From NCBI RefSeq assembly GCF_044324875.1, contig NZ_CP172185.1: a stretch of DNA of 64,000 bases; one strand, given 5' to 3'. Positions 1-8,451 of the stretch are shown here, piece after piece. Source of the stretch: Escherichia coli (lineage in GTDB: Bacteria; Pseudomonadota; Gammaproteobacteria; Enterobacterales; Enterobacteriaceae). A program made the position numbers and the translations under genes. The notes under the pieces are model-generated. The model saw only the letters and a program-made list of their open reading frames with translations, ran no database searches and was not told the DNA's origin. The number at the start of each line of letters is the position of its first letter. The first letter of the stretch is position 1.

Positions 1-29
1 GGCGACGCCGCGCGCCGCCGTGGGAAACA

Positions 30-548
30 TTAACCACCAAGACCAATCGCCGAGCGCACGCGGTCCGGGAAGACGTTTTTGCCGTCCTTGCGTTCGATGT
101 GGTTCAGTAAATCAATCTCCAGCACCGGACGGTCGTTAATGCTGAGTTTGTAGTAGGTACTCCTGACCGCATAGGTGTGAGACGTGACCTCACCCTGTTT
201 TGCCTCCCCCGTATCAATTTCCGTCACGCGGCCGCGAAGCTCAATTTCATACAGGTCGCTCTGCTCTTCATCGTTGTAGTACTCACCGACAAAGCGCAGC
301 AGCGTACCGTCGATCGTGCCGCCGTACTTAAGGAACAGTTCGCGGGTCGGCCCGCCCATGGTGAAACTCGCATCCAGCGCGCCGTCATCCAGACCAAGGT
401 CGATATTCACCGCGCCGGCCATACCACCACCGCGATAGGCTTCCGTTTTACGGGTCAGTTTGGGGGGCGTGAAGCCGGTCACCCTGCCAATCTGGTTCAC
501 CCCGTCAGTAAACAGCGTGAACACCCTGAGATTTTTTGGTACGGCCAT
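30..548 (-). CDS. P2-family phage major tail tube protein (gpFII-like)
   Basis: 172-aa ORF whose sequence I recognise as a P2 FII-type tail tube protein; its start overlaps the stop of the upstream sheath gene, as in the P2 FI-FII pair. Confidence 0.6.
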   Translation of the reverse strand: MAVPKNLRVFTLFTDGVNQIGRVTGFTPPKLTRKTEAYRGGGMAGAVNIDLGLDDGALDASFTMGGPTRELFLKYGGTIDGTLLRFVGEYYNDEEQSDLYEIELRGRVTEIDTGEAKQGEVTSHTYAVRSTYYKLSINDRPVLEIDLLNHIERKDGKNVFPDRVRSAIGLGG

Positions 549-1830
549 TAAGCACCTCCAAGCGTCGCAAATGCAGGACCAAAGAATTCATCAGTAAACG
601 TCTGGTAAAGTTCCATATCCTCAAGCGGCGGAACGGGCGTGTACTTGTAGCGGATACGCACGCGTCCCTGACGAAGTTCCGTGGTGCTGTTATCCACCAC
701 GTCATACCAGCACTCCGCACCAACGAGACGTCCTGACGTAACCAGCGCATCCAGTTTTGCGCGAATTGCGCTTAACACGTCTTTCACATTAGCAGGGGTC
801 AGCGGGGCATCAATCGTTTCAAACTGCGCTTCCGCAATGGAATCAGCCAGCACCTGAGCGGTTCGCGTGTACACCTCAAAGATATACGCCTTCGTTTCCG
901 GCGTACGGTTGCCCCAGAAGCGGAAACCGTTACGGCAAATGATGGTAGTGATTTCCTTGTTGTTGAGATTGTTGGCATCGCTGTCTTCGGACTGAAGGGA
1001 CCAGAACACCGGGCTGGAAATACCCAGCACATTTCTTACCGGCACGTTGGACAGCGATTTATGCCAGCCCTGTTCGTGGTCAATACGTGCACGTAAACCG
1101 CAGGCGTACGCCGCAGCCGGGAAGACCTCATTAGCGCCGGATTTCGGGTTATGGGCGATGAAGTCCGGCCAGACCAGCATAAGTTCGCGCTCGTTAAATC
1201 TGGCGCGGTAGCTGATTGCATCGGCGGGCTTCTTGCAGTTGTGACAGCCCGCGTAGACAAATGCGCGAAGTTTTTCTGCAATTACACACAGGGATTTTGT
1301 GACAGCTTCAGTATCCAGTCCGGGCGCTGCGATGATGCGCGGACGGTAACCGATGGCATCATCCTGTTCAGCTATCAGAAGTGCATACATACCGGTATAA
1401 TTACCGTCGCCATCCGTGCCACCAATGACATACTGGTCCTGCGTTTTGTGTGGGTATACAGGATGTGCATCTTCAGACTCATCAATACCAAAAAATGCCC
1501 TGTCTTCAGGATCCAGATGACCGAATGATGTAACTCCTGTATCCGGGGCGCCCTGAGAACTGGCATCAGGAACGCGCACCACAATCACCTTCGTGCTCAC
1601 CTGGTCGGCGACAGCCTTAAGCGATTTGTAAAGCGTCCCCTTTGTGCCGGCCTTACCCAGCACATCACTGACGCGGGTCAGCAGTGTGGGTTTGTTCAGC
1701 GGGAACAGAGTTTCATCCGCGTCATCTGCCGTAGCCACAATACCAATAACACTGGAATCCACATCATTAATGGCGGTGGCAAGGCCGGTACTTTCCCTTA
1801 CGCGCGCACCATGAAAGCGTGTTTCACTCA
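548..1830 (-). CDS. P2-family contractile tail sheath protein (gpFI-like)
   Basis: Long ORF 548..1978; start placed at the internal Met (MSETRF...) at 1830; sheath-like sequence, gene order FI then FII. Confidence 0.6.
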
Positions 1831-1992
1831 TATGTTTCACCCTTGTCTGGCTGGTTGATTTTGCGTAATCATTACCCACACACGCGGTAATCTCACCCCT
1901 TTGATGTTGTCTCCTGACAGCGACAACAAAACAGCCATTCAACGCCGCTGCGGTGCATGAAACCATTACAGAACGCACCAGGAGAGAACACC

Positions 1993-3084
1993 ATGAAAGA
2001 GCTGTCAGTTACCGTTCCGTCACCGGATATCGACATCACCATCAACAACAACACACTGGCAAACCTCACAGAGCGACTCATGACGCTGACCCTGACGGAT
2101 AACCGGGCCTTTGAGGCAGACCGCGTCACCCTCACCCTTGACGATACGGACGGGCAGTTACAGTTGCCACCACGTGGCGCACGCCTGAGAGTGATGATTG
2201 GCTGGCGAGGAGAATCACTGGTTAACAAGGGCACCTACGTCGTTGATGAGGTTGCGTGGGAAGGACCTCCAGATAAACTGATCATCACCGCCAGCAGCGC
2301 AGATTTTCGGGAAGAGTTCAACGTGAGGCGGGAGGTATCCTGGCACGACGTGACCGTAAAACAGGTTGTGTCAGCCATCGCTCACCGCTACGGCCTGAAG
2401 ACACAGATAAGCGAAATCCTCATGGATATCGAAATTGACCACGCTGACCAGACCGAAGAGAGCGATATATCCTTCCTGACCCGCATGGCTGAAATGCTGG
2501 GTGCGATTGCCACCGTAAAAAACGGCAGCCTGTTATTCATTCTGCCGGGTGGCGGAACCGGGCCGGACGGAAAAGCCCTGCCTTCGTTCGCCATTACCCG
2601 CAGCAGCGGCGACAGTCACCGCTTTCGCATTGCTGACCGTGATGCGTATACGGGGGTCCGGGCGCACTGGCTCGATCTGAAGTTCGGGCACAAGAAAAAA
2701 GTGAACGTGAAGCGACGCAGGGAAGCCGGGAAACAGAAACAGGAGAAGAGCAGCAGCCGGGAGGGTGATTACATGGAAGGCGCGGAAGGGAACGTCTACG
2801 TTCTGCGCAGGACTTACCAGAATGAAGAAACCGCACGACGTGCAGCTGCGGCAAAGTGGCAGGAGTTACAGCGGGGAGCAGCGGCATTCTCCATCACTCT
2901 GGCACGGGGTCGTGCCGACCTGTATCCCGAAATGCACGGCAGGGTAACAGGTTTTAAAAGCGAGGTGGACAATCAGGACTGGATTATTGCCAGGGTGGAG
3001 CACATCATAGATGAAAGCGGCTTCACCACACAACTGGAGCTGGAAGCGAAAATCCCCGAATGGATAGCAGATTCAGGCGGATAA
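1993..3084 (+). CDS. P2 gpD-like late tail protein
   Basis: ORF 1957..3084; ATG at 1993 is preceded by GGAGAG; sequence resembles P2 gene D product; followed by an ogr-like gene as in P2. Confidence 0.6.
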   Translation: MKELSVTVPSPDIDITINNNTLANLTERLMTLTLTDNRAFEADRVTLTLDDTDGQLQLPPRGARLRVMIGWRGESLVNKGTYVVDEVAWEGPPDKLIITASSADFREEFNVRREVSWHDVTVKQVVSAIAHRYGLKTQISEILMDIEIDHADQTEESDISFLTRMAEMLGAIATVKNGSLLFILPGGGTGPDGKALPSFAITRSSGDSHRFRIADRDAYTGVRAHWLDLKFGHKKKVNVKRRREAGKQKQEKSSSREGDYMEGAEGNVYVLRRTYQNEETARRAAAAKWQELQRGAAAFSITLARGRADLYPEMHGRVTGFKSEVDNQDWIIARVEHIIDESGFTTQLELEAKIPEWIADSGG

Positions 3085-3127
3085 AATTAAAATGAGCCAT
3101 CTCCACTCAGCCAGATAAGGAGAAGCC

Positions 3128-3379
3128 ATGTTCCGTTGTCCCCTATGCGGTGCATCCGCACGTATCCGCACCAGTCGCAATGAAAATGATTCAGGCACAG
3201 TTCGCCTGAAGTACTACCAGTGCAATAACCTCGAATGCGGGATCGGCTTTACCACACTGGAGGGTTTTAACAAATTCACATCAAAACGCGCCCCGTCGCC
3301 GCAGGGTACAGAGCGGATACCGTGGGAAGATTTTCCGGGATCTCACAGGGGGAATGCTCAGATGAATCTTGATATTTAA
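3128..3379 (+). CDS. ogr: Ogr/Delta-family zinc-finger late-gene activator
   Basis: 83-aa ORF with N-terminal MFRCPLCG...YYQCNNLECG Cys4 arrangement typical of P2 Ogr; lies directly after the gpD-like gene. Confidence 0.6.
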   Translation: MFRCPLCGASARIRTSRNENDSGTVRLKYYQCNNLECGIGFTTLEGFNKFTSKRAPSPQGTERIPWEDFPGSHRGNAQMNLDI

Positions 3380-3497
3380 GAACAATAATCAGGTTGAGAG
3401 GACATCATAAGGCAAGTAGATTAACGGCAGATACTTTCCCGCAACCACGGGCAAGTATTTAATTATCCATGATGAAATATGACCTAAATTGTTTTTT

Positions 3498-3524
3498 GCC
3501 CGCCGGAAAGCGGGCATTTTTTTA
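3498..3524 (+). terminator. Rho-independent terminator T1 (GCCCGCCGGAAAGCGGGC + T-run); first of 8 near-identical copies
   Basis: Perfect GC-rich hairpin followed by 7-9 T residues, read directly from the sequence. Confidence 0.7.
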
Positions 3525-3737
3525 TTCTTTTGTGGTTATGGGGTCATCAGGAACCACGTGCAGATTATATTTTTGTTTTTTTGGCGTTCCTCCGGCAGCA
3601 ACGAGTTCATCAATAAGACACTGACACGCCTGAACATCCCGGGCATGTCTTAGTTTCACCTTTATTGATTTAACCTTATCCTCACCGGAGGAGAAATGCA
3701 GTTCAATCTCAATATCGTTTCTTCGGAACAATCTCAT
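3522..3737 (-). CDS. Hypothetical small protein (71 aa) whose N-terminus MRLF[R/H]RND[I/V]EIELHFSSGEDKVKS recurs in the repeat units
   Basis: N-terminal 26 aa conserved in a second copy (ATG at 4907, AGGAGG 7 nt upstream) and partly in a third (around 5550); overlaps antisense to a plus-strand mini-ORF. Confidence 0.3.
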   Translation of the reverse strand: MRLFRRNDIEIELHFSSGEDKVKSIKVKLRHARDVQACQCLIDELVAAGGTPKKQKYNLHVVPDDPITTKE

Positions 3738-3749
3738 ACGCCCCCCTGA
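3696..3749 (+). CDS. Mini-ORF MQFNLNIVSSEQSHTPP (17 aa) with strong SD; candidate leader or small peptide
   Basis: GGAGGAGAA immediately before the ATG; a second copy at 4866..4922 encodes MQFNLNIVSVEQPHKTTS; the third copy has lost its ATG. Confidence 0.25.
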   Translation: MQFNLNIVSSEQSHTPP

Positions 3750-3962
3750 ATATATCAGAAATGCTAGTATCGAAAAATGAGAAAACAGTTAGACAGGAGA
3801 AACATATTAACACAAATCATTTATACCTATAGATGAAATTATAATTTCATTCATGAATATGATAGATAACTATATTGTGAACAAAATGAAAAATGGCTAA
3901 ATTAAAAATGGGCATGGAGGAATGCCCGGTTATCAATATAATGTGACGTAGATCATTGTTTT

Positions 3963-3990
3963 GCCCGCCGGAGAGCGGGCATTTTTTTTG
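3963..3990 (+). terminator. Rho-independent terminator T2
   Basis: GCCCGCCGGAGAGCGGGC hairpin + T8. Confidence 0.7.
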
Positions 3991-4190
3991 CGCCTGCCAT
4001 CGAGGCGCCTTCCCTGGCGCACACAAAGCAGCCCTGATTTTCCATGAAAACTTCAGGGTTGAGCTGCGGGCACAAAGTGAGTAGATTAGCTACGGGTACC
4101 TCCCCCTGACAACAGGAAGGGTGTCCATTATCCATGATATACAAACGAAAAGTCTTGTTTTTTGCCCGCCGAAGCGCGGGCATTTTTTTA
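3990..4190 (+). ncRNA. Candidate ~200-nt terminator-bounded sRNA unit (B1)
   Basis: Begins after T2 and ends with T3; contains internal stem-loops (GCGCCTGCCATCGAGGCGC; CCCTGATTTTCCATGAAAACTTCAGGG); three paralogous copies elsewhere in the array. Confidence 0.3.
4164..4190 (+). terminator. Rho-independent terminator T3
   Basis: GCCCGCCGAAGCGCGGGC hairpin + T-run. Confidence 0.7.
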
Positions 4191-4315
4191 TGCATCAGAC
4201 AAGATACAGCCCACCCCAACTGACACCTGAAATATTGCCGCAACAAAAAGAAACAGTTAAATTACGCGCGGGTGCCTTTCGGCTGATGGCCGGAGGGAAA
4301 ACCTGAAGGCCGGAT

Positions 4316-4549
4316 GTGGAAAGGCCCCGGAAAACATTTCTGTTTAACCGAGGCCCTAACCGCATTACCTTGACAAGTGAAAGGTTAGCGCCTCTCCGGA
4401 AAAGGAGCAAGTGCTATGTCGCAAAAATCGCTTACGGCCATCACGTTCTGCGTGACGGCAATCCTCATCATCTGGATATTGCACGGTTCGCTGTGCGAAA
4501 TACGGATGAGCTTCTGGGGAGCGGAGTTTGCGGCGTTCTTACAATGTAA
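4316..4549 (+). CDS. mok: mok-like overlapping reading frame of hok locus 1
   Basis: 77-aa ORF in a different frame overlapping almost all of the hok ORF, the arrangement characteristic of hok/mok/sok loci. Confidence 0.45.
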   Translation: MERPRKTFLFNRGPNRITLTSERLAPLRKRSKCYVAKIAYGHHVLRDGNPHHLDIARFAVRNTDELLGSGVCGVLTM

Positions 4550-4556
4550 GAAGTAA
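4416..4556 (+). CDS. hok: Hok/Gef-family type I toxin (46 aa)
   Basis: MSQKSLTAITFCVTAILIIWILHGSLCEIRMSFWGAEFAAFLQCKK: hydrophobic TM segment followed by the Hok hallmark SLCEIR motif; GGAG SD upstream; strong terminator downstream (~4650-4690). Confidence 0.75.
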   Translation: MSQKSLTAITFCVTAILIIWILHGSLCEIRMSFWGAEFAAFLQCKK

Positions 4557-5134
4557 GGAAACCGCGACGGGGGAGCAATCCCCCGTCAATCGGTTGCCAG
4601 GGTAAGGTCGATAAGGCACCCTATCTCACAGACATGAACAACAAACCCGCAGCATAAAAACTGCGGGTTTTCTTTTTGGTGTCCTCACCGACTTGAAACA
4701 GTGATCAGACTATAAGACAAAGCCCGCAATGTTGCGGGCTTACTCTACCTCTCGAAAATGTGGTCACTGCGTGGACATACGCTGATACAAATCCTTTATA
4801 TCAATAAATTAAATCTTTGTTTTTTTCATCAACAATGATTTAACCTTATCCTCACCGGAGGAGAAATGCAGTTCAATCTCAATATCGTTTCTGTGGAACA
4901 GCCTCATAAGACAACCTCCTGAATTCATCAGAAACACAGTCAACTGAAAACCAGAAAGCAGACAAACAGTGGACACACATTAATACAAATCATTTATACC
5001 TATAGATGAAATTGCAGTTTCATCTATAACATGACAGGTAACAATATTGTGAAAAAACTCAAAACTCGTTAGATTAAAGACGGACAGAGCAATGCTACTT
5101 TATCAATAACATGTAACCTGTACTTCCTTATTTT

Positions 5135-5161
5135 GCCCGCCGAAGCACGGGCATTTTTTTT
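5135..5161 (+). terminator. Rho-independent terminator T4
   Basis: GCCCGCCGAAGCACGGGC hairpin + T-run. Confidence 0.7.
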
Positions 5162-5360
5162 GCGCCTGCCATCGAGGCGCCTTCCCTGGCGCACACAAAG
5201 CAGCCCTGATTTTCCATGAAAACTTCAGGGTTGAGCCAAAAGCACAAAGACAGTAGATTAACCACGGGTGCCTTCCACCTGACAACAGGAAGGGTGTCCA
5301 GTATCAATGACAGACAACTCACATTGCTGTTTTGCCCGCCGGAAAGCGGGCATTTTTTTA
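5162..5360 (+). ncRNA. Candidate sRNA unit (B2)
   Basis: Paralogue of B1, bounded by T4 and T5. Confidence 0.3.
5334..5360 (+). terminator. Rho-independent terminator T5
   Basis: Identical hairpin to T1 + T-run. Confidence 0.7.
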
Positions 5361-5784
5361 TTCTTTTGTGGTTATTGGGTCATCAGGAACAACATGCAGA
5401 TTATGCTTTGATTTTTTTGGTGTTATTACAGCAGCAACGAGTTTATTAATAAGACACTGACATGCCTGAACATCCCTGACATATCATAATTTCACTTTAT
5501 TTTTTTAGCTTGTCCTTTCTGGAGCAGAAATATCTCAACATCGTTTCTGTGGAACAACCTCATTTGCCCCTGAATGTATCATAAATATCAGCATCGGAAA
5601 ACCAACAGCAATACAGAAGAAACATGTTAATGCAAATCACTTATACCTATAGATGAAATTACAGTTTTGTTCATAAATATGATAAGTAACTATATTGTGA
5701 ATAAAATGAAAACTAGCTAAATTAAACGTGGGCATGGTGGAATGCCTCGTAATCAATAATACATGATCCGTACTTCCTTGTTTT

Positions 5785-5811
5785 GCCCGCCGGAAAGCGG
5801 GCATTTTTTTG
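5785..5811 (+). terminator. Rho-independent terminator T6
   Basis: Identical hairpin + T-run. Confidence 0.7.
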
Positions 5812-6007
5812 GCGGTTACCATCGCCTCACCTTCCTGGTTCACATGAAGCAACCCTGATTTTCCATGAAAACTTCAGGGTTGAGACAAAAGCACAAAGAC
5901 AGTAGATTAACCACGGGTACCTTCCACCTGACAACAGGAAGGCTGTCCAGTATCAATGACAGACAACTCACATTGCTGTTTTGCCCGCCGGAAAGCGGGC
6001 TTTTTTT
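5812..6007 (+). ncRNA. Candidate sRNA unit (B3)
   Basis: Paralogue of B1, bounded by T6 and T7. Confidence 0.3.
5983..6007 (+). terminator. Rho-independent terminator T7
   Basis: Hairpin + T-run. Confidence 0.7.
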
Positions 6008-6210
6008 GGCAGTTATCATAGCCGCACCTTCCTGGCACATATGAAGCAACCCTGATTTTCCATGAAAACTTCAGGGTTGAGACAAAAGCACAAAAACAGT
6101 AGATTAACCACGGGTGCCTGCCACCTGACAACAGGAAGGGGTGTCCATTATCCATGATATACAAACGAAAAGTCTTGTCTTTTGCCCGCCAAAGCGCGGG
6201 CATTTTTTTA
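6008..6210 (+). ncRNA. Candidate sRNA unit (B4)
   Basis: Paralogue of B1, bounded by T7 and T8; its 3' part matches B1 almost exactly. Confidence 0.3.
6184..6210 (+). terminator. Rho-independent terminator T8
   Basis: GCCCGCCAAAGCGCGGGC hairpin + T-run. Confidence 0.7.
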
Positions 6211-6420
6211 TGCATCAGACAAGATACAGCCCACCCCAACTGACACCTGAAATATTGCCGCAACAAAAAGAAACGGGTGCCTTTCGGCTGATGGCCGGAG
6301 GGAAAACCTGAAGGCCGGATGTGGAAAGGCCCCGGAAAACATCTGTGTTTAACCGAGGCCTGACCCTTCCTACCGTGACAAGTGGAAGGTTAGCGCCTCT
6401 TTGTAAAAGGAGCAAGCGCT

Positions 6421-6561
6421 ATACCGCAAAAAACGATTATTGTTGGCATTTTATGCCTGACAATAACCCTGGTCATCTGGATGGTCCACGATTCGTTATG
6501 TGAATTCAGCTTTGATATCTGGGGAGCGCGTTTTGCGGCGTTCTTGCAGTGTAAACCGTAA
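6421..6561 (+). pseudogene. hok: Second hok-like toxin copy with ATG replaced by ATA (possible pseudogene)
   Basis: In-frame translation (I)PQKTIIVGILCLTITLVIWMVHDSLCEFSFDIWGARFAAFLQCKP keeps the TM segment and SLCE motif, but the position of the start codon reads ATA; the mok-like frame (6321..6503) is shortened. Confidence 0.5.
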
Positions 6562-6711
6562 GAAACCGCAGCGGGGGAGAAATTCCCCGCTATCCGGTTG
6601 TTGGGGTGGGCCGATATGGCGCCCTTTCCCTGTAGAGACAAAACAAAAAACCAGATTTGCCCGCCATTGAGAGGGCTTTTTTGTCACCCTCACCAGTGAG
6701 GGCATCATCAT

Positions 6712-6934
6712 TCAGAGGCGCGTAAGCCACCCGGCGTTAACATCCTGCCTGTCAACCCTGGCCGCAGAGTCTGAACGGCAGGTACCGGAAGGAGTACCAA
6801 AAACATCCCTGACAAGTTCCGCCACCTTCCCGATATCATCAGGTGTCACATTCCTCACCTCGGCCGTGATCCGTGGCGTACCATCATCGTTAACAAGAGT
6901 GGCTTTAAAGCTGGTGCGAAGGGAAAACAACATC
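6712..6934 (-). CDS. Hypothetical small protein (~73 aa)
   Basis: ORF 6712..6939; AGGGAGGGG SD before the second ATG; hairpin + T-run terminator on the minus strand at ~6650-6700. Confidence 0.4.
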
Positions 6935-7137
6935 AACATCCCCTCCCTTTGGTTCGTTGCACTGACGGCACGACACCATCAGGAAAAAGAAAAGCCCACA
7001 ACGTCAGTATTGTGGACTTTTTTCTTCAAAGATGGACATTATCTGGACACATGAAAATAAAATCCATTTATTTTCATATAGTTAAGTACCATGCAAAAGC
7101 GCCCGCAGGCGCTTTTTAGATTCAGAAAAATTGGGTA

Positions 7138-8451
<1,314 letters not shown>

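Follow-up and report, generated by a model that had tools for sequence, protein, structure and literature searches.

A repeat array of hok loci and terminator-bounded cassettes in the accessory arm of a defective P2-like prophage of Escherichia coli

A 3.3-kb repeat array (positions 3381-6682) was analysed in Escherichia coli contig NZ_CP172185.1 (assembly GCF_044324875.1), within a window of 64,000 nucleotides, meaning the whole stretch of DNA under study. The array is the accessory arm of a defective P2-like prophage; it lies between the prophage gene ogr and the prophage's own attachment site attR, and it is not host DNA. It contains two loci of the Hok toxin family, hok1 and hok-psi, interleaved with short units of two further types, A and B. 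Judged by identity to phages, hok1 and the attachment arm behind it come from a P88-like donor. The explanation that we consider probable for the whole is that the host prophage is a P2-like element of the P88/Xuanwuvirus type, and that the array is its cargo ('moron') arm, assembled by ordinary phage processes.

The array within the prophage

The empty site in K-12 consists of serS, 238 bp and then dmsA, and in the carrier genomes an element of ~21 kb lies between these two genes. Comparison of K-12 with both junctions gave an attachment core of 15 bp, CCTGCGGGCGCTTTT, that forms the 3' half of the serS terminator; it occurs once in K-12, and in the element at attL beside dmsA and at attR beside serS (7095-7109). 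Since this comparison of attB, attL and attR sets the core beyond the array, the whole array is inside the prophage. An earlier note on this DNA, made from the letters alone, had placed the array between a P2 remnant and serS. Physically it does lie between ogr and serS, but the attachment-site comparison assigns it to the prophage, upstream of the prophage's own attR. The true right end (6990..7109, + strand), as set by the K-12 empty site and attL, starts with a hairpin (6990-7021), continues as a P arm that bears GGACAT/GGACAC repeats (~7030-7094) and ends in the attR core, AAAAGCGCCCGCAGG (7095-7109). Read from dmsA, the gene order is integrase, C-like repressor, cox, several small early genes and then tail genes alone (S-like, V, W, J, I, H, G, U, truncated T, E, FII, FI and D), and ogr is the last conserved gene. 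The P2-type late genes D and ogr were recognized by RefSeq annotation and PHROG match. The ogr gene (3128..3379, + strand), which encodes an Ogr/Delta-like late activator, was taken from the list of open reading frames (ORFs) and RefSeq and matches PHROG 603 at E 4e-14. The element is defective: its tape-measure gene is truncated, and it is without capsid, terminase, lysis and replication genes.

The layout of the array was defined by its terminators. A regular-expression scan for the consensus TTTGCCCGCC-N7-GGGC(A)T5-8 found nine sites in 3381-6682, all on the + strand, and zero further sites outside the array on either strand of the 64-kb window. Eight of them, T1 to T8, are nearly identical, as the earlier note had seen (starts 3495, 3960, 4161, 5132, 5331, 5782, 5980 and 6181), and the ninth, T9 (6656-6682), is a degenerate copy with a weakened stem. 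Their accumulation is not random, as a generic consensus scan of 3000-7400 gave 18 terminator-like sites, where shuffles gave 4.3 +/- 2.5. The segments between terminators measure, in order, 143, 466, 200, 972, 198, 451, 197, 202 and 473 nt. By repeat search and self-alignment the array was resolved into three unit types delimited by terminators, which agrees with the three reiterated modules proposed before: A in three copies (typically ~460 nt), B in five copies (four full ones of ~200 nt, and B0 of 143 nt) and a hok type in two copies (~480 nt). The order is B0-A1-B1-hok1-[arm]-A2'-B2-A3-B3-B4-hok-psi.

An assembly artefact caused by a collapsed repeat was ruled out, because 23 records of complete E. 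coli genomes contain the same structure, with 99.8-99.9% identity; at least 80% of the 3.3 kb is covered in 25. The carriers, among them the strains LH10-b-1, F11 and NRZ14408, are chicken and human isolates from several sources and countries. The A/B units were present in 30 of 5426 complete E. coli genomes and additionally in 3 IMG/VR contigs and 2 metagenome contigs; none was found in 50,697 phage records or in 72,556 plasmid records. A search for more distant relatives by promoter and terminator patterns in IMG/VR, GTDB genomes and metagenomes returned, beyond the 3 E. coli-like viral and 2 metagenome contigs, only chance or generic terminators. An Enterobacter lambdoid prophage has GAAAAGTCTT and a similar terminator, but in an unrelated context. 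Several Rahnella species (L135 at about 6600-6710; L141, L148 and L154) have a conserved chromosomal sRNA-like gene (sRNA, small RNA) in which TATACT is followed by GCGTGCTCACCCCCGAGGGAG; it ends in a near-identical TTTGCCCGCC-N7-GGGCATTTTTTT terminator, and its body is unrelated to the A/B units. The literature search found no paper containing the terminator sequence and no record of the A/B cassettes.

The same defective element was seen in the window (1-7109), L007 (20197-38001), L005 and L158, at three sites in different strains: the serS terminator, the copA promoter region and zapB-glpF. One defective element at three chromosomal sites may still move or be moved. At zapB-glpF (L158, about 6440-6460) the core AAAAGCGCCCGCAGG abuts different host DNA, which means that the integrase has two or more chromosomal target sites with this core. 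In K-12 the attachment site of P2 itself is the cyaR terminator, beside ogrK. The divergent intergenic region between FI and D of the element (window 1905-1928) contains an Ogr/Delta-type late-promoter dyad, TGTTGT-N12-ACAACA.

The two hok loci and the fossil attachment arm

Phages of the P88-like type (Chuche, PhiR44_2 and P88) and many E. coli prophages have the order FII, FI (minus strand), D, ogr, hok, optional cargo, attP, int. Positions 4234-4687 of the window, which include hok1, are 92-95% identical to PhiR44_2 and Chuche, and positions 4696-4841 are 87-90% identical to the region before attP of the same phages; the D-ogr region of the window is only 74-77% identical to them. The stretch behind hok1 (4678..4841, + strand) is the fossil right end, that is the attP P arm and core, of a P88-like phage, with 87-90% identity to the attP arm of Chuche and PhiR44_2. 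It has a hairpin (4720-4741), arm-type repeats GTGGTCA (4760) and GTGGACA (4771), and a core remnant, CATCAACAA|TGATTT; the core in the arm of the donor phages reads ...TTTTTTTCATCAACAA(G)GATTT. The arm sites of P2 Int have the consensus TGTGGACA. In natural lysogens of the P88-like type the arm, as attR, abuts the region upstream of flk. The fossil-arm stretch is matched by 620 E. coli genomes, and among the matches listed (38 records besides the array itself) all end at or before 4841. In the array the arm is joined to the middle of the A-unit gene orf71 (junction 4835/4836), so that the second A unit keeps only the first 24 codons of that gene; the intact A1 unit has the core-like sequence TTTATTGATTTAACC at the corresponding place. 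By these comparisons hok1 appears as a recent import that came together with the attachment arm of its donor.

The hok1/mok1/sok1 locus (4190..4677, + strand) was delimited by Pfam, PHROG 251, the Rfam sok model, the fold-back and phage identity. Its predicted promoter on the + strand, TTGCCG(4235)-17-TAAATT(4263), would give an mRNA of ~4270-4677. The hok1 ORF (4416-4556, + strand) is intact and encodes the 46-aa peptide MSQKSLTAITFCVTAILIIWILHGSLCEIRMSFWGAEFAAFLQCKK with the SLCEIR motif, as had been noted before. The peptide matches Pfam HOK_GEF (PF01848) at E 9.8e-7 and PHROG 251 (MokW-like host killing) at E 8.5e-22, its RefSeq annotation is Hok/Gef family protein, and against NCBIfam HokA it scores 30.7 bits, under the cut-off of 89. 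The mok1 ORF (GTG start, 4316-4549, + strand) overlaps hok. In the predicted minimum free energy fold of 4270-4677, nucleotides 1-15 pair near AAGGCACCC, the fbi element at 4613-4621, in a fold-back of tac/fbi type (z -9.5 versus shuffles), and the locus has a terminator of its own at 4643-4677. The leader aligns full-length with Rfam sok RF01794 (46.2 bits, E 2e-8; gathering score 59). An antisense sok1 is predicted at ~4375-4310, with TTGCTC-17-TAACCT at 4410-4382 on the minus strand as its candidate promoter. Most likely, hok1/mok1/sok1 is a working type I toxin-antitoxin (TA) system of the hokW type, to judge from its sequence, and by analogy it could serve as an addiction module that stabilises the element or as an exclusion module in phage-phage conflict. 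The hokW-sokW type I system is described in PMC8621323.

The second copy, hok-psi (6210..6682, + strand), was recognized by Pfam and the Rfam sok model and ends in T9. The change of its start codon from ATG to ATA, reported in the earlier note, was found at 6421; the frame is otherwise open (6421-6561, + strand), with 46 codons and an SLCEF motif, and matches Pfam at E 1e-4. A 15-bp deletion (agttaaattacgcgc) removes the -10 element of the hok promoter, and the mok ORF (6321-6503, + strand) is truncated. Alignment with Rfam sok RF01794 is again full-length (48.1 bits, E 7e-9; same gathering score), and the predicted fold-back pairing is kept (z -4.9). Apparently hok-psi is a dead locus and, because its frame is still open and still matches the Pfam family, a recently inactivated paralogue. 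Both loci are genuine members of the Hok family by Pfam, and their Rfam sok matches were sub-threshold. The two loci are about 82% identical overall, and the identity to the hok of P88-like phages is about 78% for hok-psi as compared with 92-95% for hok1. By these identities hok-psi represents a lineage separate from hok1, and an inactivated one.

The A and B cassettes

All five B units are on the + strand. B0 (3381..3523), located by scan, alignment and fold, has the promoter TTGAGA(3394)-17-TAGATT(3422), a predicted RNA of ~95 nt with a 5' hairpin, and terminator T1 (3495-3523). B1 (3990..4189), with the promoter TTGAGC(4059)-17-TAGATT(4087), an RNA at ~4094-4189 and T3, is a chimera of the left part of B2 and the right part of B4. 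The remaining three were defined by alignment and fold: B2 (5162..5359) with the promoter TTGAGC(5231)-17-TAGATT(5259), an RNA at ~5266-5359 and T5; B3 (5811..6007) with a promoter at 5880-5908 and T7 (5980-6007); and B4 (6008..6209) with a promoter at 6077-6105 and T8 (6181-6209). They contain no mok, hok or sok and no toxin ORF, and they are taken as non-coding, because reading frames through them are not conserved between copies. Seven B copies, B0 included, share without variation GGTTGAG and GTAGATTA at a fixed spacing of 17 bp and the terminator, whereas B0 retains just about 50-65% identity in its spacer and flanks. This argues for selection on transcription start and stop. A conserved imperfect palindrome, CCCTGATTTTCCATGAAAACTTCAGGG, stands straight upstream of the -35 element in B1-B4 (in B2 at 5204-5230), with its centre near -54; neither B0 nor the remainder of the prophage has it, and it could be a binding site for a regulator. 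Ogr-dependent transcription of the B units was considered and rejected, as this palindrome differs from the Ogr dyad and is found nowhere else in the prophage.

The B units resemble hok loci in their promoter and first ~20 transcribed nucleotides, which, in an alignment allowing long internal gaps, follow the common pattern CAAAAG..ACAG-TAGATTA-N5-CGGGTGCCTT-C..CTGA. Local alignment of B2, B3 and B4 with three hok promoter/leaders gave z values of 2.3-6.9 over dinucleotide shuffles; those of B2 were 5.2-6.9, with p <= 0.002 against all three hok references. B0 occupies the position that hok has after ogr in the P88-like phages Chuche and PhiR44_2. In the predicted fold the 5' end of the B RNA, GGGUGCCUU, pairs with AGGGUGUCC a few nucleotides downstream and so resembles a miniature tac/fbi fold-back. 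Whether the B units descend from an internally deleted hok locus is, on these sequence comparisons, an evenly balanced question. A wider reading appears unlikely: that the B units, and possibly the RNA halves of the A units, are toxin-less hok descendants exapted as a tandem family of prophage sRNAs with diversified single-stranded seeds, the cassettes keeping the hok promoter, a tac-like 5' end facing an fbi-like partner, and a terminator of the hok lineage. If it were true, it would document how regulatory sRNAs can arise from the mRNA of a type I toxin, and the arm of a P2-like prophage would be a nursery for new sRNAs.

A units may be seen as fossil phage right ends, each composed of a truncated last gene, a decayed P88-type arm and a short RNA with the shared terminator. 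A1 (3524..3989), described by alignments and P-arm statistics, comprises orf71 (3522-3737, minus strand), a P-arm-like stretch (3796-3839), a palindrome and T2 (3960-3989); its promoter on the + strand, TTGTGA(3875)-17-TAAATT(3903), is predicted from sequence and fold to give an RNA of ~80 nt. The truncated A2' (4836..5161, by alignment) retains the start of orf71 within a fusion ORF (4809-4976, minus strand), the best preserved P-arm-like stretch (4969-5012), a + strand RNA and T4 (5132-5161). In A3 (5360..5810) the orf71 frame has decayed, with no ORF left in the ORF list or alignment, and a + strand RNA and T6 (5782-5810) remain. The similarity of the middle of the A unit to the P arm of P88-like phages has a z of 12.6 for A2 and of about 6 for A1 and A3 (lowest 5.9), with p <= 0.002. 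An intact A unit of the A2 type was found in IMG/VR contig L018; the same E. coli prophage contig has a B unit whose left half is interrupted by an IS10 end (1-125).

The orf71 product, an ORFan, matches PHROG 14142 and had no match in Pfam or NCBIfam. A word-index search gave only near-identical E. coli proteins, and a full HMMER search of 1.84 billion proteins gave 8 matches, including proteins of 128-133 aa, to whose C-terminal half orf71 corresponds. In another P2-like prophage, beside raiA, the gene for one 128-aa relative comes last before the attachment arm and is transcribed inward from the attachment end, like orf75 in the window. The preceding terminator cuts the native 3' end of orf71 in every A copy. 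The gene orf75 (6712..6939, minus strand) is the last one before the attachment arm of the element; it encodes a 75-aa ORFan, with no PHROG or NCBIfam match and with homologous stretches in the sister elements at copA and zapB-glpF. Homology between orf71 and orf75 was not accepted, as BLASTP gave only an off-register match of 21 residues at E 0.003.

The promoters of the A and B units are sigma-70-like with 17-bp spacing (TTGAGN-17-TAGATT, or TTGTGA-17-TAAATT/TAGATT). The predicted RNAs have 80-100 nt, with a 5' hairpin, an open A/U-rich middle and a 7-bp GC stem followed by 7-8 U; the RNA of A2 has lost the 5' hairpin. Because promoter hexamers and terminators are the conserved parts, the eight cassettes are probably transcribed, as RNAs of this size with Hfq-type 3' ends. 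That they regulate something, which the earlier note had suggested in the form of a multi-RNA regulatory locus, is doubtful. In B2 (5318-5328) and B3 (5967-5977) the open segment contains CTCACATTGCT, which we take to be identical to an 11-mer of the RyhB base-pairing region; Rfam RyhB scores 24 bits there (E 0.22), and the match may be chance.

Assembly of the array and comparison with known systems

The ogr and orf71 of the window recur in three sister elements. The copA element (L005; strains CS5L and CM2) has the order ogr-B0-A-B-B-orf73-attR, with four terminators and no hok; the zapB-glpF element (L158; strain SCU-115) reads B0-A-B-A-B-B-hok-psi; and the third is contig L018. A segment of exactly 1172 bp, lying in the window between the 100% identical left parts of B1 and B2, is absent in SCU-115. 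The fourth terminator of the copA element, at the place that hok-psi has in the window, is a T8/T9 hybrid, and behind it comes the CACCCTCACCAGTGAGGG flank seen after T9 in the window; hok-psi is therefore present or absent between two terminator copies. Within the array, the left parts of B1 and B2 are 100% identical, the right part of B1 is 97% identical to that of B4, the right parts of B2 and B3 are 100% identical, and the B-to-hok junction at 4119-4254 is 99% identical to 6139-6274. Such mosaic identities are the pattern produced by homologous exchange between repeats; on sequence evidence the units recombine, and the earlier suggestion of repeated recombination at shared elements gained support from the mosaics and from the indels between sister elements. 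These are indels of whole units bounded by repeats and point to nested integration followed by homologous recombination.

The history that would account for the arm starts from a base array B0-A-B-B of small promoter-hairpin-terminator cassettes, as in the sister elements. A P88-like phage with B0-A1-B1-hok1 would then have integrated via its attachment core, or recombined illegitimately, into orf71 of a resident A unit, where the core-like sequence CTTTATTGATTTAACC could have stood in for the flk site of the P88-type integrase. The two homologous prophages would next have collapsed by homologous recombination, leaving hok1 with the P arm and core fused to the truncated orf71; such a collapse would explain why a single integrase remains. 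Finally, units would have been shuffled, duplicated and deleted by gene conversion and unequal crossing-over, for which the 29-bp terminators and the unit repeats of ~100-200 bp served as substrates. The integrase-mediated entry at orf71 and the tandem-prophage collapse are parts that we infer.

A number of points weigh against this account or its components. The succession of events is reconstructed, and no intermediate with a second integrase was found. With just TGATTT in common between the orf71 junction and the P88 core, illegitimate recombination is equally possible. The resemblance of the B units to hok is limited to about 45 nt; B0, B1 and the Ba copy of the copA element gave no significant similarity to the three hok loci, and neither did the 3' bodies of the B units to hok 3' untranslated regions, so that an internally deleted hok is argued from promoter and leader only. 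Since terminators with hairpins of the GCCCGCC type are common, T9 could have come to resemble the other terminators by convergence. The assignment of the sok promoter was made by eye, and both Rfam sok scores lie under the gathering threshold. Covariation in the B RNA is negligible, with 1 of 19 pairs compensatory among 7 closely related sequences, and no sRNA target was found in the prophage or the window.

Three other explanations were weighed. Simple unequal crossing-over could have multiplied a single ancestral A-B-hok block in tandem, with no second phage, in line with the earlier note, which had spoken of tandem amplification of type I TA modules. Recurring repeat spacings of 1172, about 650 and about 200 bp, the nearly identical B-to-hok junctions and the mosaic unit identities would suit this. 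However, hok1 and hok-psi are 82% identical to each other, yet hok1 reaches 92-95% to free phages and hok-psi about 78%; the two loci end in different terminators, a complete P88-type arm and core follows hok1 and none follows hok-psi, and A2 is truncated exactly at the P88-type core. Amplification of TA modules was thus not borne out, and the amplification of a block is disfavoured as quite improbable. Even less credence is due to the idea that the shared terminator is a site-specific recombination site, for example an integrase attachment core, for integron-like capture of cassettes. Breakpoints in the sister elements do fall in or next to the terminator (the T8/T9 hybrid, and a joint of terminator and orf71 that cuts the 3' end of orf71), and P2-family phages are known to attach in sRNA and mRNA terminators, here that of serS; but homologous recombination over identical repeats of at least 29 bp explains the same breakpoints, the two integrase specificities here use unrelated cores (the serS terminator, and upstream of flk), and no phage or prophage was found with its attachment arm abutting the shared terminator.

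The third alternative concerns the cassettes, which would form a functional family of sibling Hfq-dependent, trans-acting sRNAs that rewire the expression of the host or of competitor phages and are kept by selection for dosage or seed diversity. This would fit promoter hexamers and terminators that are conserved against diverging spacers and flanks, a canonical sRNA architecture with a long U tail, and two to three alternative single-stranded 'seed' versions, each in several copies (UUAUCCAUGAUA..., GUAUCAAUGACAGACAACUCACAUUGCU, and in A2 and A3 the CU-rich UACUUCCUU, which resembles an anti-Shine-Dalgarno sequence). Prophage sRNAs and anti-sRNAs are moreover well documented in E. coli (bioRxiv 10.64898/2026.05.13.724894); that study, on the Pas sRNAs, deals with lambdoid prophages and with RNAs other than the A/B units. 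On the other side, Rfam, searched at the gathering score and at E <= 10, assigned no A/B unit to any family at the gathering score. The best scores (rseX 26, RyhB 24 and AgvB 23 bits, against thresholds of 50-56) were mainly driven by the terminator, and the Esr41, STnc100 and AsxR models gave no match. The complement of the conserved stretch occurs in the window and prophage only in the units themselves, and duplex prediction against local mRNA 5' regions was rejected as uninformative, giving long loop-filled duplexes in which the only recurrent signal was a generic anti-Shine-Dalgarno match of A2/A3 to the ribosome-binding site of ogr. The narrow distribution of the units, with no deposited phage or plasmid among the carriers, the poor covariation, the missing target, the lost 5' hairpin of A2 and the gain and loss of copies between strains in no obvious pattern also speak against it, and a functional sRNA family is held to be rather unlikely. 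A cargo arm assembled by ordinary phage processes remains the preferred explanation.

Read in this manner, the 3.7-kb arm is a compact and readable record of how prophage ends accumulate and reshuffle cargo: a single arm would show the recent capture of a TA locus with the arm of its donor, an older dead paralogue, fossil ends, and repeat-mediated gain and loss of units between strains. If the cassettes are expressed, they constitute an undescribed and narrowly distributed prophage sRNA family in poultry-associated and human E. coli, and their promoter and leader, apparently from a toxin locus, bear on the origin of new sRNA genes. Should they prove silent, the array is ordinary debris of a prophage.

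The arm can be compared with three known systems. With the right end of P2-family phages (D-ogr-cargo-attP) it shares D and ogr, the Ogr dyad between FI and D, arm repeats of the GTGGACA type, a core duplicated at the two prophage ends, and an accessory slot that separates ogr from the attachment site. It differs in that the slot here has 3.7 kb and consists almost wholly of non-coding repeats, that it encloses a fossil attachment arm of a second integrase specificity, and that the element is without head, replication and lysis genes. With hokW-sokW of the Stx phage Sp5 and the hok loci of P88-like phages, the loci here have in common the SLCE Hok/Gef peptide, the overlapping mok, the tac/fbi fold-back and a leader that the Rfam sok model aligns, below its gathering score, at E about 1e-8; the phages P88, Chuche and PhiR44_2 likewise have a hok-type locus straight after ogr. 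In contrast to these, a single prophage arm here holds two copies of unlike lineage, one of them inactivated, interleaved with toxin-less cassettes that reuse a hok-type promoter and leader, and hok-psi ends in the shared terminator type of the array instead of the usual hokW-type terminator. The known prophage sRNAs AgvB, AsxR, Esr41, PasA-D and STnc100 are, like the A/B units as predicted from sequence, short intergenic units, each of which has a promoter of its own, a 5' hairpin and a strong terminator of the Rho-independent type that ends in a long U tail, and several variant copies occur per genome. They occur as dispersed copies in lambdoid phages, whereas the units here are in tandem in a P2-like prophage and score 17-23 bits with the AgvB model against a gathering score of 56. 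The Hok family and the accessory slot next to the attachment site of P2-family phages are thus already known; what is unusual is the combination of dense toxin-less hok-like cassettes, an internal fossil arm of a second specificity, and a live (predicted) and a dead hok paralogue together in one arm.

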